Notes: generated by a model from the sequence alone, not told the origin. A stretch of DNA of 64,000 nucleotides from Hydrogenophaga sp. (GCF_051858985.1 NZ_JBHYGM010000003.1:161645-225644), one strand, 5' to 3'; counted from the first letter of the stretch, positions 9,283 to 56,302 are shown. Program-made: numbers and translations.

Positions 9283-10842
9283 ATGAGAAGTTCAATAACT
9301 CGGGGACTGATTGAAGCAGAACCCATATTTTCCCCGAAAGAGGAAGCGCATAGCGATCGCGCTGCTCCGAATCCTGCGGCCTTGATTGAGGCGATGCGCT
9401 CTTTGGGCTACACCCTTGAGACTGCAGTAGCCGACATCGTTGACAACAGCCTCTCACATGGCGCGAGCAATGTTCATATTCAATTTGACTGGGCTGGCCC
9501 CGCCTCGACGGTTTCAATTTCCGACGACGGCAACGGAATGAGTGAAAAGCGGTTAGTGGAGGCCATGCGCGCGGGATCACATGACCCGCGTGCGGAACGA
9601 GCAGCAGGAGATTTGGGCCGGTTCGGCTTGGGACTGAAAACGGCATCTTTTTCGCAGGCTAGTCGCTTGAGTGTGATGACGCGAGCCAAGGGGCTACCCG
9701 AAGCCATCCGAGTCTGGGATTTGCCGCATGTGTCCAAGGTGAACGACTGGCTGCTGTTGCGTGAGGTCAGCGCAAGCGCCTCTTTACAAGCGGAGTGGAT
9801 GCGTAGCCAGTCCTCAGGCACATGCGTGGTTTGGGAGGGCGTGGATCGACTGGTAGGGGACGCGAGCGCAGATAACGTGAACGCACACAAAGCATTCATG
9901 GAAGCAGCCGACCGCGTCGCAATCCATCTGGCTATGGTGTTTGGCGAGTTCCTCATCGGCGCTAGCGCAGTGAAGATCACCATAGGAAATGTTGCGCTAT
10001 CTCGCTGGGATCCCTTTCTGCGGGATCATTCTGCTACACAGGTACTTCCCCAGGAGCAGCTTGCTGACGGCCGACACGGTATTTCCGTGCAGCCATATGT
10101 CCTGCCGCACCACTCGCGACTATCCAAGAGCGAATTCGTGACAGCAGCGGGCGCCAAGGGATGGAACTCGCATCAGGGCTTTTACGTTTATCGGAATCGG
10201 AGACTGATCTCTGCAGGGGGCTGGCTCTCTTTGGGACTTACTCGCGATGAGCATCTGAAGCTCGCGCGAATTCGGATCGACTTGGGCAATGAAGTCGACT
10301 TCGACTGGAAGCTGGATGTGCGCAAGTCGGTGGCCAGCCCGCCGATTGCGTTGCGGCAGGAGTTGCGACGCATCGCGCGCCTGACGCGTGAACGTGCTCA
10401 AGAGGTTTATCGCCACCGTGGGCGGCGAATCGTGGCAGCCAGCCCGGATGACCAATCCACTGTCTGGGAGGCAAGACAGATGCGTGGCAAGACCTTGTTT
10501 CGCATCAGTAGAGATCACCCATTGGTCAGGGCATTGACAGGCCCAGATGAAAGTGGGCGCGCCACAGAGGCCCTGCTCAAACTAGTGGAGCAGACGATTC
10601 CATTGGCCTCGATCTACATTCGCCATGCTGAGGCTCCGAACGATCAACCGACTCCGTTTGATGACACAAAGGACGCGGCCTTTAAAGAGATGCTTTGTGA
10701 CCTTTACCAAGGCATGCGGGTGGCAGGGCATAGCCACGAACAGGCAGTGGCTACCCTGTCCACGCTTAGCGCCGTCAAGACCCGACCGCATTTGATTGCC
10801 ACGCTCCATTCAAATCCTCCTACGCTGTCTGAGCTCGACTGA
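9283..10842 (+). CDS. GHKL/MORC-family ATPase (MutL-like; MzaB-like)
   Basis: GHKL boxes ADIVDNS, DDGNGM, GRFGLGLKTAS, GTCVVW; S5-like second domain (QGFYVYRNRRLI, LARIRID); GAGGAG RBS. Confidence 0.9.
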   Translation: MRSSITRGLIEAEPIFSPKEEAHSDRAAPNPAALIEAMRSLGYTLETAVADIVDNSLSHGASNVHIQFDWAGPASTVSISDDGNGMSEKRLVEAMRAGSHDPRAERAAGDLGRFGLGLKTASFSQASRLSVMTRAKGLPEAIRVWDLPHVSKVNDWLLLREVSASASLQAEWMRSQSSGTCVVWEGVDRLVGDASADNVNAHKAFMEAADRVAIHLAMVFGEFLIGASAVKITIGNVALSRWDPFLRDHSATQVLPQEQLADGRHGISVQPYVLPHHSRLSKSEFVTAAGAKGWNSHQGFYVYRNRRLISAGGWLSLGLTRDEHLKLARIRIDLGNEVDFDWKLDVRKSVASPPIALRQELRRIARLTRERAQEVYRHRGRRIVAASPDDQSTVWEARQMRGKTLFRISRDHPLVRALTGPDESGRATEALLKLVEQTIPLASIYIRHAEAPNDQPTPFDDTKDAAFKEMLCDLYQGMRVAGHSHEQAVATLSTLSAVKTRPHLIATLHSNPPTLSELD

Positions 10843-13763
10843 TGAACCTCTCAATCACCAACTTTCTCCCTGACGCTCAAAAAGAGGCACGTGCCCAAGC
10901 ACGCACTGCCCTGACTCGCTTTCCAAATCCAGATCTGGAACGCATCCGCATCTGCTGCGACAAGGCACGTCGTTTTGTTGAGGAGGACTTCGGCCAAGGG
11001 TCTGTGGATGTCGAGGAGCTCGTCGATTACTTCGCTGCCAACAGCAACATCTTCGTGCCTCTTGCACAGACGCTGAAGGATTCAAAAGACCACGTTGATT
11101 GGCTAGCAGGGCGTAGGGGAGAGATTCCATGGAAGTTCTGGCAGCGCTATCAGACTTTTCTTCAGTCAATTGAGGAACTGCCAGATCCCGTCATTCGATC
11201 CATAGAGGTTCGTACAGAAGGGATTCTGGAGCTACTAGAAGACCCGCGGCGTCCTGGTCCATGGGACAGGCGTGGGCTTGTGGTGGGGAGCGTGCAGTCC
11301 GGCAAGACGGGCAACTTCCTAGGACTCGCCAGCAAGGCTCTGGATGCTGGCTACAAACTAGTGATCATCTTGGCAGGCATCCACAACAGCTTGCGCGCGC
11401 AGACGCAGATTCGGATGGAGGAAGGCTTGCTCGGTTACAACACTGACTCAAGCCTATTTTTTGAGGAGGCAAGTACGAAGGTCGGAGTTGGCACGCTCGC
11501 ATTCCCGGATCTTCCGGTGAACTCGATGACTTCCCGAGCAGAGACAGGTGACTTCAAGGCTAGCAACCTTGGGACCGTGATGCACTTGGGCGAAACACCC
11601 TTCATCGTCGTCGTCAAGAAGCACGCCAGCATCCTAGAAAATCTGCGAAAGTGGCTAACGCTAAAGAATGGGGTGGAGCTTCCCGACGGAAGCAAACTTG
11701 TCAGGGACTTGCCTATGCTTGTAATCGACGACGAGGCTGATCATTCGTCGATCAACACCAGAAAGCTCACAAAGCTAAGCGCAGACGGGATCTCTGCAGA
11801 AGAGGTGGATCCCACTCGAATCAACCAGCGTATCCGGCAGTTGCTCCAAGCTTTCGACAAAAGCGCTTATGTCGGTTACACCGCAACACCGTTCGCGAAC
11901 ATCTTCGTGGATCCGAGAGCCAAGCATGAAAAGTTCGGCGAGGATTTATTTCCTCGAAGCTTCATTGTCTCGTTGCCTCCGCCAGAGAACTACTTCAGTG
12001 TTGAAAGGGCCTTCGGCAACGACGGGGACTGGGATTCGGGCATTGAGGCTACGCATGGGTTGCCCATAACGCGGCTGGTTGAGGATTTCCCAACAGGGGT
12101 CGGTTCCAGTTCCGCGCTCGCTGATTTACCGGGAACGCTCAAGGAGGCGATCAATGCATTCCTTCTTGTCTGTACGGCGCGTCACGCGCGCGGCCAGACG
12201 GCGAAGCACAATTCGATGTTGATCCATGTGGCTCGTTACATCGAGGCCCAAAGCAAGATTTCCGAACTTGTTCAGACAGAACTTTTGTTCTTGCAACGAC
12301 GCATCGCGAATGAACGTGATGATGCAGCAGTATCTTTGCGCGATGAACTACGGAAGCTCTGGGAATCCGACTTTGTGAAGACAACGCGCGACATTGCGGA
12401 GTGGAGCTGCCCCGAAATGAGTTGGGGGGAAATCGAGCCGTCGCTCATCGCGGCTATCTCGAAAATTCAAGTTCGCGAAATCAATGGGAGTTCCGGCGAC
12501 ATCCTCGACTATGAGAAACACCGCGATGCTGGCATCAGCGTGATCGCAGTGGGGGGAGACAAGCTTTCGCGCGGACTGACGCTCGAGGGGCTGTCGGTGT
12601 CGTACTACATGCGCGTATCGAAAATGTACGACTCGTTGCTGCAGATGGGACGTTGGTTTGGCTACCGGCCTGGCTATGTTGACCTCTGTCGCATATACAC
12701 GTCCCGAGAATTGATCGCTTGGTATCGTCACATTGCGCTTGCGGAAGCCGAGCTTCGTCGCGAGTTCGAACGAATGGCAGTGATCAAAGCCACGCCCGAG
12801 GAGTACGGCCTTCGAGTCCGTACCCACCCCGACGGAATGATGGTGACCGCCCTGAATAAAGCTAGAGCGAGTCAGAAAGTCCAAGTTTCGTACGAAGGAA
12901 CACTAACCCAGTGCGTGGTTCTCGACACGGCAGTCCACGTACGCAAAAACAACGAGAGTGCGACAACAACCCTGATTCAGAGAATGGGAGACACCAGGAT
13001 GCGCACCGAAGATGGCTTATCGCCAACGCGTATATGGTCGAGGATAGATGCCGAAGCAGTTTGCGCTTGGCTTGAAGCATTCCAGTCACCCATGGGTACA
13101 AACGGTTTCGACTCGCGTCGCATCAGCCAGTTCATTAGGCGGCAGCAAGGGAGCGGCGAACTTGTCGAATGGACGGTGGCCCTGGTCAGTGCTAATGGAG
13201 GTGCTGAATCCACGGTTGCAGATCTCAAGGTCCAACTCGCAAAGAGAAGTCATGCAGGAAGTCCTCGAGAGGGGCCGTATACGTTACTCAACAGTAACGT
13301 CCTCAACCCTCCAGACCAATGGATTGACCTGAAGGGAGCGGTGCTGGACGAGCTTTGGGTGAAACACCTATTGAAGAAGCGTGCCTTCAAGATAGAACAC
13401 CATGGCGAGCGTGCGGTGGTCGAAGGCGCGGTGGGACGCGACGCGCTAGAAGTAGCCCAAGAACTGAGCCTACTGCGCTTTGAGGCAGATCGAGAAGCCG
13501 GGCGTACTCGCTCCAACCAAACGGCTCCGAAGAAGCCTTTGGGGTCCGTAGTACGCGATATTCGCCCAACGAGTTGCGGACTTTTGCTGATTTATCCCCT
13601 CGACAGCTCCCACGCAGGCTTCGTCCCTAGTGACCTGCCGTTCTACACCTGCGCGATAAGCTTCCCCGCTAGCGCGACTGCAGTGCCAATCGAGTATCAA
13701 GTGAACGAGGTTTACCGCAGACTGCACTTGGATCAGTTGGAGGAGCCTGATCGTGAGGATTGA
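10842..13763 (+). CDS. Z1 domain protein with SF2-helicase-like N-terminus (MzaC-like putative endonuclease/translocase)
   Basis: GSVQSGKT (Walker A), IDDEADH (Walker B), YTATPFAN, LSRGLTLEGL, LQMGRWFGYRPGY; TGATG coupling to the ATPase gene. Confidence 0.9.
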   Translation: MNLSITNFLPDAQKEARAQARTALTRFPNPDLERIRICCDKARRFVEEDFGQGSVDVEELVDYFAANSNIFVPLAQTLKDSKDHVDWLAGRRGEIPWKFWQRYQTFLQSIEELPDPVIRSIEVRTEGILELLEDPRRPGPWDRRGLVVGSVQSGKTGNFLGLASKALDAGYKLVIILAGIHNSLRAQTQIRMEEGLLGYNTDSSLFFEEASTKVGVGTLAFPDLPVNSMTSRAETGDFKASNLGTVMHLGETPFIVVVKKHASILENLRKWLTLKNGVELPDGSKLVRDLPMLVIDDEADHSSINTRKLTKLSADGISAEEVDPTRINQRIRQLLQAFDKSAYVGYTATPFANIFVDPRAKHEKFGEDLFPRSFIVSLPPPENYFSVERAFGNDGDWDSGIEATHGLPITRLVEDFPTGVGSSSALADLPGTLKEAINAFLLVCTARHARGQTAKHNSMLIHVARYIEAQSKISELVQTELLFLQRRIANERDDAAVSLRDELRKLWESDFVKTTRDIAEWSCPEMSWGEIEPSLIAAISKIQVREINGSSGDILDYEKHRDAGISVIAVGGDKLSRGLTLEGLSVSYYMRVSKMYDSLLQMGRWFGYRPGYVDLCRIYTSRELIAWYRHIALAEAELRREFERMAVIKATPEEYGLRVRTHPDGMMVTALNKARASQKVQVSYEGTLTQCVVLDTAVHVRKNNESATTTLIQRMGDTRMRTEDGLSPTRIWSRIDAEAVCAWLEAFQSPMGTNGFDSRRISQFIRRQQGSGELVEWTVALVSANGGAESTVADLKVQLAKRSHAGSPREGPYTLLNSNVLNPPDQWIDLKGAVLDELWVKHLLKKRAFKIEHHGERAVVEGAVGRDALEVAQELSLLRFEADREAGRTRSNQTAPKKPLGSVVRDIRPTSCGLLLIYPLDSSHAGFVPSDLPFYTCAISFPASATAVPIEYQVNEVYRRLHLDQLEEPDRED

Positions 13764-14784
13764 GACGCTTGAGCAGTTCTGGCAAGAAATCGAGGCTTCC
13801 CCGAAGCCTGATCAGCTGGGCTGGGTGAGGAGATTAGCGAATGCAGGGGCCGTTGTGCCGGTACATGCTGCAGTCGCGTGCCGGGGAGGCACGCGATCCA
13901 TCATGCTCGATATTCCGGTGACGGCCGTGATCCTTCTCCAGCATCTGCCCTCGACAAGCGGGCTCACAGTTGAACTCGTGCCTGCGCTGCAGAATGTGCC
14001 GGAAGGCATGCGAACTTTGGCTGTCGCGTTGGAGGACTACCAGTACGTCGACATTTTCAGCGTGTTCTGCGCCGATGTAGTGGACGGCATTTCGCGATGT
14101 GTAAAGGTGCAGGATGCCGTTTTGTTATTGCTTCAACGCTTTCAGCGCTGGCAGCAATTTCTGAGTAAAGCTGTAGATGGGCTGAGTCAACAAGCACTGA
14201 TTGGTCTGTACGGTGAGCTTCAGGTGTTGCGCGAAATTCTGATTCCGCTCTGTGGGATTGGCATGGTTGCCGCTTGGTGCGGAGCTCAACGAACCCCGCA
14301 GGACTTCATAGTGCCAGGTATTTGCGCTGTGGAGGTAAAGAGCACTATGGCCAGATCGATGCTGCGAGTTCGCATCCATGGTGAACGCCAACTGGACGAT
14401 AACGGACTGACTTCTCTGTTTTTGGTTTGCTTTCGGCTCCAACGGGAGGAGGGAAGCGGGGAAAGCCTGAACCAACTTGTCGACGAGTTGCGGCAGCGAG
14501 CCGCGATTGCACCGGAGTTTTCAATGATTCTTGACCAGCACTTGGCCGACGCAGGTTGGTTCGAACGGCATCGTCAACGGTACGAAGCTCAGAGACTGGT
14601 AGTCGCGCAGCGGCGCTTTTTTCGCGTCGGCGAAGGCTTTCCGCGACTGCTTCCTCGCTCGTTGGCTGCGGGCATTGATGAAGTCGAGTACCAGCTCGAT
14701 CTGCGGTCTTGTGAATCCATGGAGTGTGGTTTTAAGGAATTTGAAGCCTCCTTGAGGGCCCTTGAGCTTGCTTCTGGCAAATGA
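13753..14784 (+). CDS. PD-(D/E)XK motif protein, DUF4420-like (MzaD-like)
   Basis: GLYGEL and QDF...AVEVKST nuclease-like motif; GTG start overlapping the Z1 gene end; conserved position between Z1 and AIPR. Confidence 0.85.
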   Translation: MRIETLEQFWQEIEASPKPDQLGWVRRLANAGAVVPVHAAVACRGGTRSIMLDIPVTAVILLQHLPSTSGLTVELVPALQNVPEGMRTLAVALEDYQYVDIFSVFCADVVDGISRCVKVQDAVLLLLQRFQRWQQFLSKAVDGLSQQALIGLYGELQVLREILIPLCGIGMVAAWCGAQRTPQDFIVPGICAVEVKSTMARSMLRVRIHGERQLDDNGLTSLFLVCFRLQREEGSGESLNQLVDELRQRAAIAPEFSMILDQHLADAGWFERHRQRYEAQRLVVAQRRFFRVGEGFPRLLPRSLAAGIDEVEYQLDLRSCESMECGFKEFEASLRALELASGK

Positions 14785-16856
14785 CGATGACGCTAAACGA
14801 CTACTTTCAGCAGCTGCGCAACGAAGTTCTGAACGATGCGGGAACCGACGGTGGCGAGACCTTCGTCGCCGAAGCTTTTACTCGACGCTTCCTCGACCTG
14901 CTTGCTGAAGCTGGGGAAATTGCAGATGCGGATGTCAGCTATTACGCGCGCACAGGCATGCGTGTCGATGGATATGCAGCCGACGAGAACGAAGACACAC
15001 TGGATTTGTTCGTGACGCTTCGCAATGGGGGCGAGGTTCCCGAGCCCATCGAAAAGCTTCGGGTCGATACGACCTTCCGGCAGTTGGCTGGCTTTTATGC
15101 AAAGGCGCAGGCAGGCCTGCATGCAAGGATGGAAGAGGTAGAACCAGCCTTTGAGCTCGCACAAAAGATTCACCTCCAGCATCAGCAGAACGAGGGCTTT
15201 AGCCGCGTTCGCCTGTTTCTCGTCACTGATGGGATAGTCAATGTCAACCGTCTGCCAGATCCGCCAGAACTTGGGGTGGCGAATGTCACTTTGCATGTTT
15301 GGGATTTGGAGCGACTGTTCCGGTGGTACAGCTCGGGCCGGGATCGCGAGGCTATCGAGGTAGTGCTGTCAGATCGTGACTTGCCGCCGGTTAGCTGCTT
15401 GGAATTCGACCAGCCCGGAGCAGACTACGTTAGTTATTTAGCGATCTTTCCGGCCGAGGTGCTGGTGTCGATTTACGGACGTTACGGACCACGCCTCCTC
15501 GAACGCAATGTTCGCTCGTTTCTGCAGGTTCGTGGTGAGATCAATAAGGGAATCCGCGCCACGATCATGGAGGAGCCGGACCGATTTTTCGCGTACAACA
15601 ACGGCCTCACCGCAACTGCATCGGAGATCGAGGTAGAGAGGCAGCCGAGCGGTGCTTTGCGAATCACGCGGTTAGTTGACTTGCAGATAGTCAATGGCGG
15701 GCAGACTACAGCCTCGCTCTTTCGTGCTGTGCGTAAGGATCGGGCCGATATCAGTCGGATCGCGGTCCAAGTGAAGCTCAACCGGGTGCGTGACCATGAG
15801 GCGCTCAGCGAGCTGGTTGGACATATTTCCAAGTTCGCCAATTCGCAGAACAAGGTTAGCGTGTCCGACTTATCGGCGAATGATCCGTTTAATCAGAGAC
15901 TCGAAGAGCTCTCTCGCACCGTCTGGGCTCCAGCTAAAGGTGGAGCTCAGCTTGAGACGAAGTGGTTTTATGAGAGGGCCCGGGCGCAGTACGCAGATGG
16001 ACTAGCGAGTGCGGACACACCCGCGAGGAGGTCAAAGTTCGAAAGGGAATATCCAAAAATTCAGCTATTCGGAAAAACAGATGTCGCTAAGTACGAGATG
16101 GCTTGGAACCAGTATCCTCATGTGGTGAGCCGAGGAGCACAGAAGTGCTTCGTGGTTTTTAACGAAGAGATAACCAAACGCGGTACAAACTATCGGCCCG
16201 AGAAGAGTTTCTTCGTTCACCTCATCGCGCGAAAGATCCTGTTTGACGCCTTGGACAAGATCGTGTTGAAGAAGAAGTACAGCTACAAGGCACAGGTTGT
16301 CGCATATGCACTTTCCTGGCTTTCGTTCCAGACGCGAAAGCGATTTGACTTTGATGCTGTGTGGAACGATCAAGCGATTTCGACACCAGTCCTCTTGTTC
16401 CTTGAAGACTTGGCCGAGCTTGTGCATCCCGTGATCGCGAGTCCCCCCGGTGGAAAGAATGTGACGGACTGGTACAAAAGTGAAGCTTGCTGGAAGTCTG
16501 TTCAGTTGCTTGACCTGTCATTGCCCGAAGGGCTCAAGAGTTTGGTTGATGAATCCTTGTTATCAGAAGCCATTGGTATCGACGCTCCAACAAGCGAGGA
16601 AGAGGTCGAGATCATTTGGGCTAGATCCGTCTCCGCCGAAGTTTGGTTCGAGATCTCTGCTTGGGCCAAGAGGACAGATTCGCTCGCATCTTGGCAGCGC
16701 AGCATTGCGTTCAGCCTCGGTAAGCTGTCGGGCCAAGGCCGGGCACCCTCACGCAAGCAAGCAACTCAAGGGCGGAGGCTGTATGACGAAGCGGTACGCC
16801 AAGGGTTTGCAAGTTCTGCCAAACCCGGCGATGCCTTCCTGGCGCGCTCAGGGTAA
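14781..16856 (+). CDS. AIPR family protein (MzaE-like)
   Basis: LLERNVRSFL, FFAYNNGLT, QIVNGGQTTASL, ANSQNKV motifs; ATGA overlap with the upstream gene. Confidence 0.9.
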   Translation: MTMTLNDYFQQLRNEVLNDAGTDGGETFVAEAFTRRFLDLLAEAGEIADADVSYYARTGMRVDGYAADENEDTLDLFVTLRNGGEVPEPIEKLRVDTTFRQLAGFYAKAQAGLHARMEEVEPAFELAQKIHLQHQQNEGFSRVRLFLVTDGIVNVNRLPDPPELGVANVTLHVWDLERLFRWYSSGRDREAIEVVLSDRDLPPVSCLEFDQPGADYVSYLAIFPAEVLVSIYGRYGPRLLERNVRSFLQVRGEINKGIRATIMEEPDRFFAYNNGLTATASEIEVERQPSGALRITRLVDLQIVNGGQTTASLFRAVRKDRADISRIAVQVKLNRVRDHEALSELVGHISKFANSQNKVSVSDLSANDPFNQRLEELSRTVWAPAKGGAQLETKWFYERARAQYADGLASADTPARRSKFEREYPKIQLFGKTDVAKYEMAWNQYPHVVSRGAQKCFVVFNEEITKRGTNYRPEKSFFVHLIARKILFDALDKIVLKKKYSYKAQVVAYALSWLSFQTRKRFDFDAVWNDQAISTPVLLFLEDLAELVHPVIASPPGGKNVTDWYKSEACWKSVQLLDLSLPEGLKSLVDESLLSEAIGIDAPTSEEEVEIIWARSVSAEVWFEISAWAKRTDSLASWQRSIAFSLGKLSGQGRAPSRKQATQGRRLYDEAVRQGFASSAKPGDAFLARSG

Positions 16857-16890
16857 ACCCCCCATCCCGCTTGTTTGCAACACAATTGTT

Positions 16891-18450
16891 TCAAGGGCGC
16901 TGTGGTCGCTTGGTATTTGGACGAGTGCTTAGGACTTTTGCTACGAGGTGTGCAATTTGATGCGACAGCAGTGATGGCACCGCGTTGCCCACTTGGTGGT
17001 ACTGCTGAGTGCGGTTGCCTTGGAAAAAGTAGTTGTCAGGAAAAGTCTGGAGCCTCGCAGCCTCTCGGACAGTGAGGCTGCGACATTGACTTGGATCCGG
17101 GTGAATGAAGTAGTGCCCATCCTTAGCGATGTGGCTGGTGACCGTTGTGCTCGGTTGGTCGTGGAGCTGCACCCGGAACCGGTCTACAAACTTGCCTGAC
17201 TCCCAGTTCTTGTGGTCAGGCGCCAAACCTTCCAATGGAAAGTCCTTGTGGCTCTTCGGTGTCCTCTTGTTCAGCAGCCCAAACACCGAAGTGTAGAAGT
17301 ACCGCCCCAGATCGCTATCCATGTGCGATCGAGATTCATGGTTAAGCCATACATCCAGTCGATCATCCTTTACCCAGTTCGCAAACGTGGAGGGCGATTC
17401 CAGTGCTTTTGTTTGTCGATATCGAAGAGCGCCAGTCTCCAGTGTCAGACCGAGCTTGATGGCAGCTCCTCTAAGTTGCAAAGCAAGTTGGTCAAACCCT
17501 TTGGACTCCGCATCCACAAGCAGCTTCTTCGCCATTCTTTGAACGACGAGTCTCCACTCATCATCGCTGTCGTTCTTGCTGAGTCTGCTTCTGAGTTGAG
17601 GGAGCGAAAAGATGGCGTTCTCGACGGTGAGAGATGGACGCTTTTCAAGCAGGTGTTGCCCCTCGTAACCCAGTTCTTCTCGTACACCCAGCAGGATGAC
17701 TCGGTGTCTTGCTTGGGGTATTCCATATTTTTCAGCTTCGATGATGAAGGCGTTGGCGTCGATGAAGTCTGGCTCCATGTCAGCTTTGTACGTCGCCTCA
17801 CTCACTAGGGAGTGGATGGTGTATCTGACGCCATCAGGATTGCCGAGTGCCTTTCCTGGTTCTGCCAGATCTCGCAGGATGTCGTGGAAGACCAGCTTTC
17901 CGTTCACCTTTGACGACAGAATCCCTTTCACGTTTTCCATCACAAAGACGGCGGGTCGTGTTGTATTCAGGATCCGCAAGTATTCACGGTAAAGAAAGTG
18001 TCTGTGGTCGTTCTCGGCCACATAGTCTCCCTTCCCTCGATTGCGTGAACGCCCCACCAGTGAGTACGCCTGACATGGTGGTCCTCCGATCAGTACGGTT
18101 TCGTCTTCTTTCAGACGCGCATTGCGAAGGAGCTCGTCAAGTAGAAGGTTGTGCGCCGGGTCACCGAGAGTCAGCTTGTGGGCTTCGGCCTTTGCTTCTT
18201 TCCAGGCGGCTGGCGCGAGATCCCCTGGATGAGCAGCTTCCGCAGAATGGCAGTAGTCATAGTACGCATTCAGCGCTCTTTGGTCACCCTGGATGCGCCT
18301 GAAGAAACTGCGGAGCGTCAGCGTCTTGTGTGCGCTCTCTTCCATCTCGGCAGAAACTGCTATCTCATAGCTCTTTCCGCCTGCATGAGAGGCGAAGCCC
18401 TCGCCCAGTCCCCCCGGACCAGCGAATAAATCCACGATCTTGTAAGTCAT
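16891..18450 (-). CDS. dcm: DNA (cytosine-5)-methyltransferase
   Basis: Motif I DLFAGPGG, IV GGPPCQ, VI ENVKG, VIII PQARHR, IX REAARLQTFPD, X GNAVP; ATG overlaps the vsr stop (TGATG). Confidence 0.95.
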   Translation of the reverse strand: MTYKIVDLFAGPGGLGEGFASHAGGKSYEIAVSAEMEESAHKTLTLRSFFRRIQGDQRALNAYYDYCHSAEAAHPGDLAPAAWKEAKAEAHKLTLGDPAHNLLLDELLRNARLKEDETVLIGGPPCQAYSLVGRSRNRGKGDYVAENDHRHFLYREYLRILNTTRPAVFVMENVKGILSSKVNGKLVFHDILRDLAEPGKALGNPDGVRYTIHSLVSEATYKADMEPDFIDANAFIIEAEKYGIPQARHRVILLGVREELGYEGQHLLEKRPSLTVENAIFSLPQLRSRLSKNDSDDEWRLVVQRMAKKLLVDAESKGFDQLALQLRGAAIKLGLTLETGALRYRQTKALESPSTFANWVKDDRLDVWLNHESRSHMDSDLGRYFYTSVFGLLNKRTPKSHKDFPLEGLAPDHKNWESGKFVDRFRVQLHDQPSTTVTSHIAKDGHYFIHPDPSQCRSLTVREAARLQTFPDNYFFQGNRTQQYHQVGNAVPSLLSHQIAHLVAKVLSTRPNTKRPQRP

Positions 18451-18974
18451 CAATCTGTCTTCTTCTCAGTTTCTATTCGTAGTGTCGGCAGCGCTCGAAG
18501 TTCGCCGATCTGCTGGTCAGACTCGATCCAGTCAGTCAGTGCGGTCTGAACATCAAGGAGCGATCTGGTTGTTCTCAGGAAACACTCCCAAACTAACAGC
18601 ACTCTCCAGCCCATTTCTTGAAGTGCCGCTTCACATCTGGCATCCCGGGCCACATTTGCTTGGAGCTTCCCCGCCCAGAACTCGGGGCGCGTGGTGGGGA
18701 GTTTGGCGAAACGGCAATTCAGGTGGTGGTGCCAGAAGCAACCGTGTACGAAAACCGCAATTTTTCTGCCCGGCATGACCATATCGGGCTTTCCAGGCAG
18801 ATCTCGTCGATGAAGGCGGTATCGGTACCCGGCCGCAAAAAGCGCCTTCCGAACAATCAGTTCAGGTTTGGTGTTGCTCCCGCGAATGCCGGACATCATG
18901 GCGCTTCGTTTTTCGGGAGATACGACGTCTACCAAGGCGGTTCCCTGTTGGAGGTCAGAGGGCGAGCAGGTCAA
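18450..18974 (-). CDS. vsr: Very short patch repair endonuclease (true start may be TTG at 18935)
   Basis: DVVSPEKRSAMMSGIRGSNTKPE, LPGKPD, FVHGCFWHHH, N..RD, GWRVLLVWEC. Confidence 0.95.
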   Translation of the reverse strand: MTCSPSDLQQGTALVDVVSPEKRSAMMSGIRGSNTKPELIVRKALFAAGYRYRLHRRDLPGKPDMVMPGRKIAVFVHGCFWHHHLNCRFAKLPTTRPEFWAGKLQANVARDARCEAALQEMGWRVLLVWECFLRTTRSLLDVQTALTDWIESDQQIGELRALPTLRIETEKKTD

Positions 18975-19209
18975 TCAAGCCGGTTGATCGTACCAGGTTG
19001 CCCCGTGGAGCCAGTCCATTCTTTGGTGTTGCCATTGCTTATCCGTCGACCTTCTCCGGACAAGGGCGACTGTTTATCATGACGCACACCCTGGTCGCCG
19101 CGTCGTCTCAGGCCTCCCACCTGCGTTCCAGCGCGCGAGACAGGCATAGCCGCAGAGGCGGCGGTTCCGAGTTCTCCCTCACCCGCCCGCACCTCCTTCT
19201 CGTCCGTCC

Positions 19210-20427
19210 ATGCAGTCCGACCGTCACGTTCAGGCCAACACCCCCGCCGCGCGCCAATCCCCCTGGCCACGCCGCGCGCTCTGGGTCGCCCTGCTGCTCG
19301 GCACAGGCTTCGCCGCTTGGTGGTTCCTCCTTCGCCCACCCGCTCCACCCCCAGCCACGCGCGGCCCTTGGGACATTCCCATCCCCGTGCGGGTGGAAAC
19401 GGCGCTGGTGGAGGACTTCACCGTGCAGGCCCGCGCCGTGGGCACGGTGTCGCCTTACAACACGGTCACGGTGCGCAGCCGGGTGGATGGTCAGTTGGCG
19501 CGCGTGCTGGTGCGCGAAGGGCAGAAGGTGACCAAGGGCCAGTTGCTGGCCGAGATCGATCCCGAGCCTTTGCGGGTGGCGCTCTCGCAGGCGCAGGGCC
19601 AGCAGCAGCAGAACCAGGCCCAGCTTCGCAATGCAGAGAGCGAGCTGGCGCGCTACGACATGCTCTTCAAGCGCGACGCGGTGGCGCGCCAGGTGCTGGA
19701 CAGGCAGGCCGCGCTGGTGCAGCAGCTGCGCGGCACGCTCAAGAGTGACCAGGCGCAGGTGGACAACGCGCAGTTGCAGCTCTCTTACACGCGCATCGTG
19801 GCGCCCATTGCCGGGCGTGTGGGCCTGCGCCGGGTGGACGCGGGCAACCTGATTTCGGCGAACGACGCCAATGGCTTGTTCACGTTGACGCAGACGCAGC
19901 CGGTGTCGGTGGTCTTCAATGTGCCCGAGCCGCTGGTGGCCGATGTGCGTGCCGCGCACGACGGCAAGACGCCGCCGCAGGCCGAAGCGTGGGACAGGGA
20001 CAACCGCGCCCGTCTGGCGCTGGGCCGGCTGGACACGCTGGACAACCAGATCGACGCGGCCACTGCCACCCTGCGGCTCAAGGCGCGCTTCGAGAATGCG
20101 GACGACGCGCTGTTTCCCAACCAGTTCGTGAACGTGCGGCTCTCGCTGCGGCAGTTGCCCGGCGCCATCACCATCCCCACCGACGCCGTGCAACACGGTT
20201 CGCGCGGGAGCTATGTGTATGTGATCGTGGAGGGCAAGGCCCGGGTGCGGGATTTGTCGCTGGGCCCGGCGAGCGGTGGGCGCACGGTGGTGACGAAGGG
20301 GCTGGCTGCCGGTGAGCCGGTGGTGCTGGAAGGGCTCGACAGGCTGGAGGACGGCCGCGCGGTGAACATCGTGCAGCAGGCGGGGCAGGTGCCGGTTGCT
20401 TCGCCGCTGGCGCCGGACGCGAAGTGA
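19210..20427 (+). CDS. mdtA: RND efflux membrane fusion protein, MdtA-like
   Basis: N-terminal membrane anchor, VTVRSRVDGQL, LSYTRIVAPIAGRVGLRRVDAGN, LFPNQFVNVRL. Confidence 0.9.
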   Translation: MQSDRHVQANTPAARQSPWPRRALWVALLLGTGFAAWWFLLRPPAPPPATRGPWDIPIPVRVETALVEDFTVQARAVGTVSPYNTVTVRSRVDGQLARVLVREGQKVTKGQLLAEIDPEPLRVALSQAQGQQQQNQAQLRNAESELARYDMLFKRDAVARQVLDRQAALVQQLRGTLKSDQAQVDNAQLQLSYTRIVAPIAGRVGLRRVDAGNLISANDANGLFTLTQTQPVSVVFNVPEPLVADVRAAHDGKTPPQAEAWDRDNRARLALGRLDTLDNQIDAATATLRLKARFENADDALFPNQFVNVRLSLRQLPGAITIPTDAVQHGSRGSYVYVIVEGKARVRDLSLGPASGGRTVVTKGLAAGEPVVLEGLDRLEDGRAVNIVQQAGQVPVASPLAPDAK

Positions 20428-20435
20428 AACACGTA

Positions 20436-20587
20436 CCGTTCGGGCTGAGCCTATTTCCGTTCGGGCTGAGTCCATCTCGCTTAGGGATGAGCCCATCTCC
20501 CTTAGGGCTTAGCCCATCTCCGTTCGGGCTGAGCTTGTGTCCGTTCGGGCTGAGCTCGTCTCCGTTCGGGCTGAGCTTGTCGAAGCC
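20436..20587 (+). repeat. Tandem array of 7 x 21-bp degenerate units (CCGTTCGGGCTGAGCnnnnnn) ending in a full REP-like arm CCGTTCGGGCTGAGCTTGTCGAAGCC
   Basis: Units start at 20436, 20457, 20478, 20499, 20520, 20541 and 20562. Confidence 0.93.
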
Positions 20588-20610
20588 TTTCCACGCCTGC
20601 ACCACCAGAC

Positions 20611-20737
20611 CCCTTCGACAAGCTCAGGGCGAACGGGAGCGTGGGCAGGCTCGGGCCCTTCGACAGGCTCAGGGCGAACGGGGGCGTGGGCAGGCTCGGG
20701 CCCTTCGACAAGCTCAGGGCGAACGGGGGCGTGGGGG
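20611..20737 (+). repeat. Three 45-bp tandem units, each with an inverted REP-like arm CCCTTCGACA(A/G)GCTCAGGGCGAACGG
   Basis: Units start at 20611, 20656 and 20701 (third truncated); arms are near reverse complements of the arm at 20562-20587. Confidence 0.93.
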
Positions 20738-20742
20738 CTGAC

Positions 20743-23700
20743 ATGTCTACCTCCGCCGCCGCACCGGTTTCCATCTCCCGGCCTTTCATCCTGCGGCCGG
20801 TGGCCACCTCGCTGCTGATGCTGGCGATGCTGATTGCCGGTTTGCTGGCCTGGCGGCAGTTGCCGGTGTCGGCTTTGCCGCAGGTGGATTACCCGGTCAT
20901 CCAGGTGTTCACCTTCCAGCCCGGCGCCAGCCCGGACGTGACCGCGCGCACCGTCACCGCGCCGCTGGAAAGGCGCTTGGGGCAGATTCCGGGGCTGGTG
21001 CAGATGTCGTCCACCAGCTCGGGCGGGGCGTCGGTCATCACCATGAAGTTCGCGCTGGAGGTGAACCTGGGCGTGGCCGAGCAGGACGTGCAGGCCGCGC
21101 TGCAAAGCGCCAACAGCCTGCTGCCTTCCGACCTGCCCGCGCCGCCGATCTACCGCAAGGTGAACCCGGCGGACGCGCCCATCCTCACGCTGGCCATCGG
21201 GTCTGAAACGCTGCCGCTGCCGCGCGTGGTGGACCTGGTGGACACGCGCATGGCGGGCCAGCTCTCGCGCCTGCAGGGCGTGGGCCTGGTGAGCCTGGCG
21301 GGTGGGCAGCGCCCGGCCATTCGGGTGCAGGCCAACAGCCGCGCGCTGGCCGCCAACGGGCTCACGCTGGAAGAGCTGCGCACGGCCATTGCCGCGGCCA
21401 ACAACAACCAGCCCAAGGGCAGTTTTGATGGCGCGTTGCGCAGCACCATGCTGGACGCCAACGACCAGCTCCGCTCCGCCGCCGAATACCAGCGGCTCAT
21501 CGTGGCCTGGCGCAACGGCGCGCCGCTGCGCCTGGCCGACGTGGCGCAGGTGGAAGAGGGCGCGGAAGACCGCTTTCTGGCCGCCTGGGCCGGCATGGCC
21601 TGCGCCGAGGGGCAGACCGATGGCTGTGGTCTCGCACCGGCGGTGCTGCTCAACATCCAGCGCCAGCCGGGCGCGAATGTGATCGCCGTGGCCGACCAGG
21701 TGCGCGCGCTGCTGCCGCAGCTCACGGCCACGCTGCCAGCCACCGTCAAGGTGCAGGTGGTTTCAGACCGCACCGAGAGCATCCGCGCTTCCGTGCGTGA
21801 TGTGCAGAAAGAACTGCTGTTCGCCATTGCGCTGGTGGTGCTGGTCACCTTCGTGTTTCTGCGCACGCTGCCGGCCACGCTCATTCCCAGTGTGGCGGTG
21901 CCGCTCTCGCTCATTGGCACCTTCGCGGCCATGTATTTGCTCGGCTACTCGCTCAACAACCTGAGCCTGATGGCGCTCACCATCGCCACCGGTTTCGTGG
22001 TGGACGACGCCATCGTCATGCTGGAAAACATTGCCCGCCACCGCGAAGACGGCGCCGCGCCGATGGAGGCCGCGCTCAAGGGCGCGAGCGAGATCGGCTT
22101 CACGCTCATCTCGCTCACGGTCTCGCTGGTGGCGGTGCTGATTCCGCTGCTCTTCATGGCCGACGTGGTGGGCCGCCTGTTCCACGAATTCGCGGTCACG
22201 CTGGCGGTGGCCATCGGCATCTCGCTGGTGGTGTCGCTCACGCTCACGCCCATGATGGCGGCGCGCATGCTCAAGCGCGCACCCACGCACGACGGCGGGC
22301 GCGACTGGCTGAGCGGCACCATCGAACGCTACGGCCGCGGGCTGGACTGGGTGCTGGCGCGCCAGCCGCTGGCGCTGCTGGTGATGGCCGCCACGCTGCT
22401 GCTCACGGCGCTGCTGTATTTGTGGGTGCCCAAAGGCTTTTTCCCTGTGCAGGACGCGGGTTCCATCCAGGTGGTCACCGAAGCGCCGCAGAGCGTGTCG
22501 TTCGGCGCCATGGCCGAACGCCAGCAGGCGCTGGCCGAGGCGCTGCTGAAAGAGGCACCCGTGCAAAGCGTGTCGTCGTTCATCGGCGTGGACGGCAGCA
22601 ACGCCACGCTCAACAGCGGGCGCATGCAGCTCACGCTGGCGCCGCACGCCGACCGCTCGGTGTCGGCCAGCGAGCTGATTGAACGCCTGCGCGAACGCGC
22701 GCGCGGCATCAGCGGCATCGAAGCGTGGTTCCAGCCGGTGCAGGAGCTGGGCATGGAAGACCGCATCAGCCGCACGCAATACCAGTTCACGCTCAGCTCG
22801 CCCGACCGCACGGTGCTGGCCGAATGGACCGGCCGCATGCAGCAGGCGCTGGCCGAGCGCCCGGAGCTGGCGGACGTGGCCAGCAACCTGCAGCGCGAAG
22901 GCCTGCAGGCTTTCCTGGAGATCGACCGCGACGCCGCCGCGCGCCTGGGCCTGCGCATGAGCGACATTGCTTCTGCCCTGCAGAGCGCGTTTGGCCAGCG
23001 GCAGGTGAGCACGCTGTTCACGCACGCCAGCCAGTACCGCGTGGTGCTGGAGACCGACGACGCGAAGCAGGGCGGGCTGCAGGCGCTGGAAGGCGTGTTC
23101 GTGAAGCCGGCCACGGGTGGAGCCAGCGCAGTGCCGGTGCCGCTCTCGGCCGTGGCGCGCGCGGTGGAGCGGCGCGCGCCGCTGGCCATCGACCACCAGG
23201 GCCAGTTCCCGGCGGTCACGCTGTCGTTCAACCTCGCGCCCGGCCATTCGCTGGGCGAGGCGGTGGCGGCCATTGAGGAAGTCCAGGTGCAGGTGGCGCT
23301 GCCGGCCTCGGTGGAGCTCGCGTTCCAGGGCGCTGCCGAAGGCTTCCGCAACTCGCTGGCCAACACGCTGTGGCTGGTGCTGGCGGCGGTGGTGGTGATG
23401 TACCTGGTGTTGGGCATGCTGTACGAGAGCGCGGTCCACCCGCTCACCATTCTGTCCACGCTGCCGTCGGCCACGGTGGGCGCGCTGGCCGCGCTGCTGC
23501 TGGCGGGGCGGCCGCTCGATCTGATCGCCATCATCGGCATCGTGCTGCTGATCGGGCTGGTGAAGAAGAACGGCATCATGATGGTGGACTTCGCGCTCGA
23601 CGCGCAGCGCCGCCTCGGCATGACGCCGCGCGAAGCCATCCACCGAGCGGCGCTGCTGCGCTTTCGCCCCATCCTCATGACGACGCTGGCCGCGCTGTTC

Positions 23701-23877
23701 GGTGCCGTGCCGCTCATGCTGGCCAGCGGCTCCGGGGCCGAGCTGCGCCAGCCGCTGGGCATCGTCATAGTGGGTGGGCTCATCGTCAGCCAGGTGTTGA
23801 CGCTGTTCACCACGCCGGTGGTGTATCTGGCGTTTGATCGGCTGACGCGGCGGCGCAAACCGGCGGCGGCGCCATGA
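20743..23877 (+). CDS. mdtB: RND efflux permease, MdtB-like
   Basis: [64 protein letters not shown] at 20743; the ORF track's upstream extension is REP-derived. Confidence 0.92.
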
Positions 23878-56242: not shown

Positions 56243-56302
56243 CCGTTCGCACCGAGCTTGTCGAAGTGCTCGCGAAGGCTTCGACAAGCTCAGCCCGAAC
56301 GG
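56243..56302. repeat. REP-like inverted-repeat doublet, same family as 20436-20737
   Basis: Left arm CCGTTCGCACCGAGCTTGTCGAAGTG (56243-68); right arm GGCTTCGACAAGCTCAGCCCGAACGG (56277-302) is the exact reverse complement of 20562-20587. Confidence 0.9.

Follow-up and report, generated by a model that had tools for sequence, protein, structure and literature searches.

Repetitive extragenic palindromic (REP) elements lie close behind the 3' ends of genes, between unidirectional or convergent open reading frames (ORFs), and sometimes supply the stop codon; REP clusters with tandemly reiterated units, and spurious short REP ORFs, have been described (PMC3733652). Intercistronic REP copies are known to alter mRNA stability, and the effect of REPs and of bacterial interspersed mosaic elements (BIMEs) on it has been reviewed (PMC3184786). 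Mycobacterial interspersed repetitive units (MIRUs) carry an ORF in the operon direction that overlaps its neighbours at both ends, the stop of one gene and the start of the next (Supply et al. 1997, summarised in PMC3184786). REP clusters in operon junctions, repeat-borne stops and repeat-derived ORFs are already known, and the idea that ribosomes are relayed across a repeat is precedented by MIRUs. Here we analyse a mosaic of palindromic repeats between mdtA and mdtB, two genes of an mdtABC efflux-pump operon, in a stretch of 64,000 nt (hereafter the window; 65.6% GC) from a Hydrogenophaga-like member of the Comamonadaceae.

The gap between mdtA and mdtB is probably occupied by a cluster, specific to this lineage, of a palindromic repeat that is dispersed and non-coding and resembles REPs and REPINs or a transposable element of the miniature inverted-repeat class (MITE). 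A dispersed palindromic element has inserted at the end of mdtA, and the size of the resulting arrays differs between strains. A frame of 105 codons runs through the cluster without interruption and is, in our judgement, most likely a by-product of the repeat architecture. The features on which the argument rests are as follows.

19210-20427, plus strand: mdtA, periplasmic adaptor of the MdtA/MuxA family, 405 aa, with its TGA stop at 20425-27.
20415-20733, plus strand: inserted block of 319 nt, which replaces 56 nt (the ancestral mdtA 3' end and a 12-13-nt spacer) and is missing from ten related sequences.
20424-20741, plus strand: open frame of 105 codons, from a GTG that overlaps the mdtA stop (GTGA, 20424-27) to a TGA (20739-41) separated by one base from the mdtB ATG; most likely not a gene.
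20436-20582, plus strand: seven tandem 21-nt units, of which units 3 and 4 are degenerate.
20562-20636, plus strand: core palindromic element (arm, loop of about 27 nt, arm), a form seen at other loci of the genome in copies of 75-79 nt.
20583-20610, plus strand: unique 28-nt spacer, the loop of the core element.
20611-20745, plus strand: three tandem 45-nt units, the third truncated (about 35 nt matching, to about 20735, followed by native sequence).
20733-20745, plus strand: ribosome-binding region of mdtB, made of GGGGG, a 5-nt gap (CTGAC, which contains the TGA of the open frame) and ATG.
20743-23877, plus strand: mdtB, resistance-nodulation-division (RND) permease of the MdtB/MuxB family, 1044 aa counted from the ATG at 20743.
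56243-56302, no strand assigned: single copy of the element, with the same arm pair and a short loop, between two co-directional minus-strand genes (Asp/Glu racemase and NUDIX/MBL-fold).

The mdtA stop and the mdtB ATG are separated by 315 nt, which consist of an 8-nt leader, the seven 21-nt units, the 28-nt spacer and the three 45-nt units. In each 21-nt unit the left arm's outer 15 nt (CCGTTCGGGCTGAGC) are joined to 6 variable nt, and unit 7 extends into the complete left arm, CCGTTCGGGCTGAGCTTGTCGAAG. The 45-nt unit joins the right arm CCCTTCGACAAGCTCAGGGCGAACGG to a G-rich flank of 19-21 nt; the right arm CTTCGACAAGCTCAGGGCGAACGG, complementary to the left arm, is present in each of these units. 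An earlier reading of the window from its letters alone (the sequence-only reading) had described this gap, its unit numbers, the open frame and a second copy of the core at 56243-56302. Coordinates, layout and translation were all confirmed, the frame reading VKHV(PFGLSxx)x7 followed by residues encoded by the spacer and by the 45-mers, as were the MdtA/MuxA, MdtB/MuxB and MdtC family assignments, mdtC being the next gene after mdtB. Six arm matches (with up to 3 mismatches) were found in the window against 0 expected. Its view that the gap is filled by a dispersed palindromic repeat amplified in place is supported. The observations of that reading were accurate in nearly every detail; its interpretation, considered below, is weakly supported.

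The block is a recent insertion, because ten relatives without it have only 11-13 nt between the two genes and, for the most part, a longer MdtA. The ten sequences comprise nine fetched loci, in which MdtA is 83-96% identical to that of the window, and one metagenome contig. In Hydrogenophaga sp. 2FB and Pseudorhodoferax Leaf267 the TGA of mdtA is followed by 11-12 nt and then the ATG of mdtB, without a block, and seven metagenomic or Logan loci (MdtA 92-96% identical, DNA 90.5-92.4% identical) have 12-13 nt between the genes. MdtA of most relatives is about 10 residues longer (409-430 aa) and ends in a Pro/Ala-rich tail. The empty site is delimited most precisely by a 13.7-kb contig (X3) of a relative about 95% identical in DNA, in which the bases corresponding to 20414 and 20734 are joined through 56 other letters. 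The 319 nt at 20415-20733 stand in place of these 56 nt, which held the last 13 or so codons of mdtA, the stop and the spacer. The last three sense codons of the present mdtA and its stop lie inside the inserted DNA (from 20415), as does the GTG that overlaps this stop. None of 80 loci fetched with MdtA from species genomes held the core (0/80), and the insert is restricted to two or three very close strains.

A diverged version of the mosaic was found in a second strain, represented by Logan contig L082 (mdtA 93.7% identical in DNA), which holds both halves. In its left half the same mdtA end and GTGA are followed by an 8-nt leader of other sequence, four 21-nt units and a full arm; its right half contains at least three 45-nt units and then GGGGGCTGATATG, with the TGA kept one base before the ATG. 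A comparison across strains had been suggested as a check of unit number and of the frame. The number of 21-nt units did vary (seven in the window, four in L082), and the bridging frame is open in both halves of L082. The array has diverged by about 12% between the strains, compared with about 6% for the flanking genes; most of the array differences change the encoded residue, and no indels other than whole units were seen. The frame and its TGA are kept in the second strain, which follows from the periods of 21 and 45 nt together with common descent. The pattern in L082 is what a relay of ribosomes predicts and is equally the outcome of these periods and a single shared insertion, and with such small counts the two cannot be told apart. 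Of a third sample (X4/X5) only the right junction was seen. The order of segments in L082 is itself unusual: positions 1-2694 start inside the right half of the mosaic and run through mdtB nt 1-1019, and at 1155/1156 the contig switches to 270 unrelated nt followed by mdtA and the left half. This layout is either a chimeric path through the repeats or a rearrangement or duplication in that strain.

The element belongs to a family that is dispersed within the source genome and far beyond it. Copy number in the source genome was estimated from Logan contigs, and the source run yielded about 16-21 further arm-bearing contigs at single-copy depth, which puts the family at no fewer than about 20 loci in this genome. 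Many of these are complete arm-loop-arm elements of 75-79 nt, and arm pairs occur in both relative orders. The core has the form CCGTTCG-N4/5-GAGCTTGTCGAAG (window 20562-20636 and 56243-56302; L133-L135). Matches to the core that are 100% identical over 27-30 nt were found on large plasmids or chromids of Sphingobium and Sphingomonas (Alphaproteobacteria), of Comamonas, Polaromonas and Variovorax (Betaproteobacteria) and of Methylotuvimicrobium (Gammaproteobacteria). Both copies in the window are intergenic. At 56243-56302 the TGA stop of the racemase gene (56290-56292, minus strand) lies within the repeat arm GGGCTGAGC, and the NUDIX/MBL-fold gene starts 57 nt downstream of that stop in the same frame. 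On a plasmid of Comamonas antarctica, a 225-nt junction between co-directional genes contains another array of this family; its four to five units recur with periods of 20 and 22 nt, and each of the three frames has stops. Tandem reiteration of outer-arm sub-units is thus a habit of the family that is independent of reading frame. A search of the available literature collection for the peptide words and six core DNA strings found no paper, and the 18-mer of the spacer, GAAGCCTTTCCACGCCTG, gave 43 matches in metagenome contigs, all due to chance and none with repeat arms. The family seems to be without a published description.

When the locus is set beside the described systems, its likeness to REPs, BIMEs and REPINs (E. 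coli, Pseudomonas, Stenotrophomonas; PMC3116915, PMC3733652, PMC3184786) lies in a short GC-rich palindromic repeat with many copies per genome. As with REPs, the copies are placed mainly behind gene 3' ends, sometimes supply stop codons, form tandem clusters that include flanking DNA and give rise to spurious ORFs, and the GC-rich inverted repeat has dispersed, mostly extragenic copies (the six arm matches, at two loci of the window). The differences are also clear. No GTAG or CGTC tag flanks 20562-20636 or 56243-56302, the arms being CCGTTCG...CGAACGG; a single arm is not palindromic, and the unit is the arm-loop-arm of 75-79 nt; the same core extends over three proteobacterial classes, a distribution unusually wide for REP-type repeats. 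The strings of the family were searched for in PMC3733652 and are not present there. Because it has no GTAG or CGTC end tag, the element is classed as REP-like and not as a proven REP. The clustered units with variable copy number (7 x 21 and 3 x 45 nt; four 21-nt units in L082) are of the BIME type, but BIME-2 consists of alternating whole REPs, whereas here direct repeats of partial or whole arms flank one inverted pair.

MIRUs offer the closest parallel to the open frame. Like them, the block occupies an intercistronic gap of an operon, is built of tandem units whose number varies between strains and contains a through-running ORF that abuts the flanking stop and start, in L082 as well as in the window. 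MIRUs, however, belong to a different phylum, have units of 40-100 nt that are organised without a long hairpin, and translation of the present frame is only putative; we claim no sequence relationship, and the likeness is an analogy. Rickettsia palindromic elements (RPEs) and other in-frame repeats (PMC3733652, PMC3184786) share with this block a length and an absence of stops that permit ribosomes to read through, but the repeat here is intergenic, without fusion to a protein; of MdtA, only the final three codons are repeat-borne.

The openness of the 105-codon frame is most likely accounted for by three properties: the unit lengths are divisible by three, the units are stop-free in that frame, and stops are rare in DNA of 65% GC. 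Stop counts in the six frames of the gap were 8, 1, 0 (plus the terminal stop), 1, 3 and 3; the consensus 21-mer is open in two of the three plus-strand frames and the 45-mer in all three. Stop-free windows of 105 codons make up 37% of all such windows in the 64 kb and about half of those in the mdtBC region. The overlap of the GTG with the mdtA stop is nearly automatic, TGA preceded by A, G or T (3 of 4 cases) always yielding an overlapping start codon. The frame also lacks the composition of a gene. GC at codon positions 1/2/3 was 0.69/0.62/0.64, compared with about 0.71/0.47/0.90 in mdtA, mdtB and mdtC, and GC at third positions in real genes ranged from 0.88 to 0.94. The sequence-only reading had pointed to differences among the 21-mers at third codon positions, but these account for 6 of 11 variable columns (binomial P = 0.12), which is not significant, and several of the differences change the residue (F/L, L/M, P/R, L/P/S and F/S/C). 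No NCBIfam match to the 105-codon product was found, and no gene with this product is on record. Among 5.8 billion proteins there were 12 weak matches, all of them repeat-derived ORFs built alike, with several PFGLSxx units followed by PFGLSLSKP, a spacer and LRQAQGER, from arrays with periods of 21, 24 and 42 nt. Neither host-like codon composition nor homologues under purifying selection were found.

The large hairpin noted earlier was borne out by folding (predicted -183 kcal/mol, z = -5.6). The predicted RNA forms one long interrupted hairpin in which left units 5-7 pair with the three right arms, and the structure would start about 9-15 nt past the mdtA stop. REPs within about 15 nt of a stop codon reportedly stall terminating ribosomes (Liang, Rudd and Deutscher, 2015). 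The two strains together have six full right arms, and every substitution in the stems of these arms (9A>G, 10A>G and 19C>T) keeps G.U pairing only in the RNA of the sense strand, a weak hint that the fold may matter as mRNA. In an oligo-dT soil metatranscriptome we found one contig of 198 nt identical to 20499-20696 (depth about 3), and contigs of other copies of the family; nothing from the mdtA or mdtB flanks was found in this run, which is small and the only RNA run that holds the region. The contig fits, weakly, a stable and possibly polyadenylated decay fragment protected by the hairpin. Decay intermediates stabilised by REPs are said to be polyadenylated in E. coli (Khemici and Carpousis, 2004). 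An intrinsic terminator or attenuator was considered and rejected: no terminator-like site was found in 20100-21000, and the hairpin is followed by GGGGGCTGACATG, with no qualifying U-tract. No promoter-like site was found in the gap region, and an Rfam search returned no relevant family.

These data suggest the following course of events for a REP-like insertion. After the element had settled at the end of mdtA, the arrays would have grown as slippage or unequal recombination duplicated two pieces in tandem, one of 21 nt from the left arm and one of 45 nt that contains the right arm. The element would be transcribed within the mdtABC mRNA, as the metatranscriptome fragment hints, and its RNA would form the long interrupted hairpin. 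As described for intercistronic REP elements (PMC3184786), the hairpin would block 3'-to-5' decay and, as a spacer, uncouple mdtB from mdtA, and it probably alters how stable the mdtA and mdtB/C segments are, and how much they are translated, relative to each other. Translation of mdtB presumably starts from its own retained GGGGG Shine-Dalgarno sequence; GGGG is found at equal spacing before the mdtB ATG in relatives. The insert was probably tolerated by the operon because mdtB kept this Shine-Dalgarno sequence and because the MdtA tail that was lost is not conserved.

The sequence-only reading had proposed that the repeat-built frame may be tolerated, or selected, because ribosomes cross it. 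In such a relay, akin to that envisaged for MIRUs, ribosomes would end at the mdtA UGA, restart at the GUG, melt the hairpin, stop before the mdtB AUG and restart there; the insertion would have survived, or been shaped, by preserved coupling, and the peptide would be functionless. More broadly, the CCGTTCG...CGAACGG family could settle in tight, coupled junctions by virtue of stop-free units with lengths divisible by three, the number of copies would tune MdtB/C, and the TGA would have been fixed after the insertion; this wider scheme, like the relay at this locus, we hold to be unlikely. Several observations nevertheless weigh in its favour and against a mere by-product. By a rough estimate, chance alone would give the full layout (GTGA, open frame, TGA-N-ATG) to only a few insertions in a hundred, and both of its ends are kept in L082 despite about 12% divergence of the array. 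The TGA directly before the mdtB ATG is missing in all relatives without the insert, yet kept in the second strain; without the TGA at 20739-41 the frame would continue, out of register, for 461 nt into mdtB. Of the intrinsically open frames, the bridging one has acquired no stops and the other has acquired one TAG in the window and two TGA in L082, numbers too few for significance, and only whole units were gained or lost between the strains. The ancestral junction was tight (11-13 nt), which makes coupling plausible, and for MIRUs, ORFs are described that at either end overlap the genes next to them in a polycistron (PMC3184786). Against the relay, its features are cheap or inherited, because periods of 21 and 45 nt hold the frame and the two strains share one insertion event. 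The GTG is preceded by no good Shine-Dalgarno sequence, only GGA. For mdtB a relay is unnecessary, as it has retained a correctly spaced GGGGG of its own. The Comamonas array of the same family, with its 20/22-nt period, is closed in all frames, and the copy at 56243-56302 has no neat relay ORF. The full layout was, moreover, the reason this case was picked, so that a look-elsewhere effect applies. With openness cheap, no coding signal in the frame and a closed array in the same family, the proposal that crossing ribosomes maintain the frame is without support.

Selection could instead have acted on the RNA. A dedicated regulatory hairpin might set the ratio of MdtA to MdtB/C by way of processing, of unequal decay or of ribosomes that stall at the mdtA stop, with copy number as the tuning knob. 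The very stable predicted fold, its start about 9-15 nt after the mdtA stop, the G.U-preserving substitutions of the right arms, the variation in unit number and the recovery of a hairpin fragment without its flanks all agree with such a role, but we consider it highly improbable: only two or three very close strains carry the insert, so the operon can function in its absence, the same element occurs at many unrelated loci, no terminator-like site is present, and the substitutions are few, with gene conversion between units likely. A real small protein of 105 aa (Pro/Gly/Ser-rich, then Arg/Gln-rich) that works with the pump would be consistent with an open frame that has a start codon and is open in the second strain too. 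This reading is nearly refuted, given the flat GC over codon positions, the lack of an NCBIfam family, look-alikes that are all repeat-derived, the mostly non-synonymous differences between strains and the absence of the frame from close relatives. That short reads were misassembled across the repeats is equally hard to credit. Short-read contigs of other samples do break inside the array, as in L082, but here an independent Logan assembly of the source run agrees base for base with the window, on an unbroken 36-kb contig of even depth, and a diverged version of both mosaic halves was found in another sample. A collapse is unlikely because no exact repeat within the array reaches 31 nt (k = 31). 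A REP-like cluster that expanded at the end of mdtA, with the frame as its by-product, therefore remains the reading we prefer.

The insert has also affected annotation. Gene callers place the mdtB start at a GTG at 20641, which gives a protein of 1078 aa with a false, repeat-encoded extension of 34 aa. The recorded MdtB proteins of Hydrogenophaga all have 1039-1044 aa and begin at the ATG corresponding to 20743, and none of the MdtB proteins on record has the 34-residue extension encoded by the 45-mers. Some database proteins of 704-1597 aa (P0134, P0154 and P0198) are apparent joins of MdtA-type adaptor domains and an MdtB-type permease; fusion of the genes, or frameshifted calls, at this junction in other organisms may account for them.

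On its other side mdtA adjoins a second variable region. The interval just upstream is a hotspot for defence genes, occupied in the window (9283-19200) by AIPR and C5 methylase genes. At the same site relatives with MdtA 92-96% identical carry a SLFN-like helicase (L083), a type I HsdR (L085), an SNF2 helicase (L086) or SRA-HNH and ResIII (L088), and in two of those relatives an SRAP gene forms the left anchor of the hotspot.

The mdtA-mdtB junction provides a clear and datable case of a repeat element invading an efflux-pump operon and expanding there, with filled and empty sites in relatives that are 92-96% identical. The insert shortens one gene at its end and leads gene callers astray, giving mdtB a false extension of 34 residues, and the gap is open to being read as a phantom ORF of 105 codons. 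If the relay were true, it would be a testable mechanism by which palindromic repeats colonise coupled junctions without breaking operons, and it would extend an old, untested idea about MIRUs to the Proteobacteria. The repeat family itself may deserve separate study.

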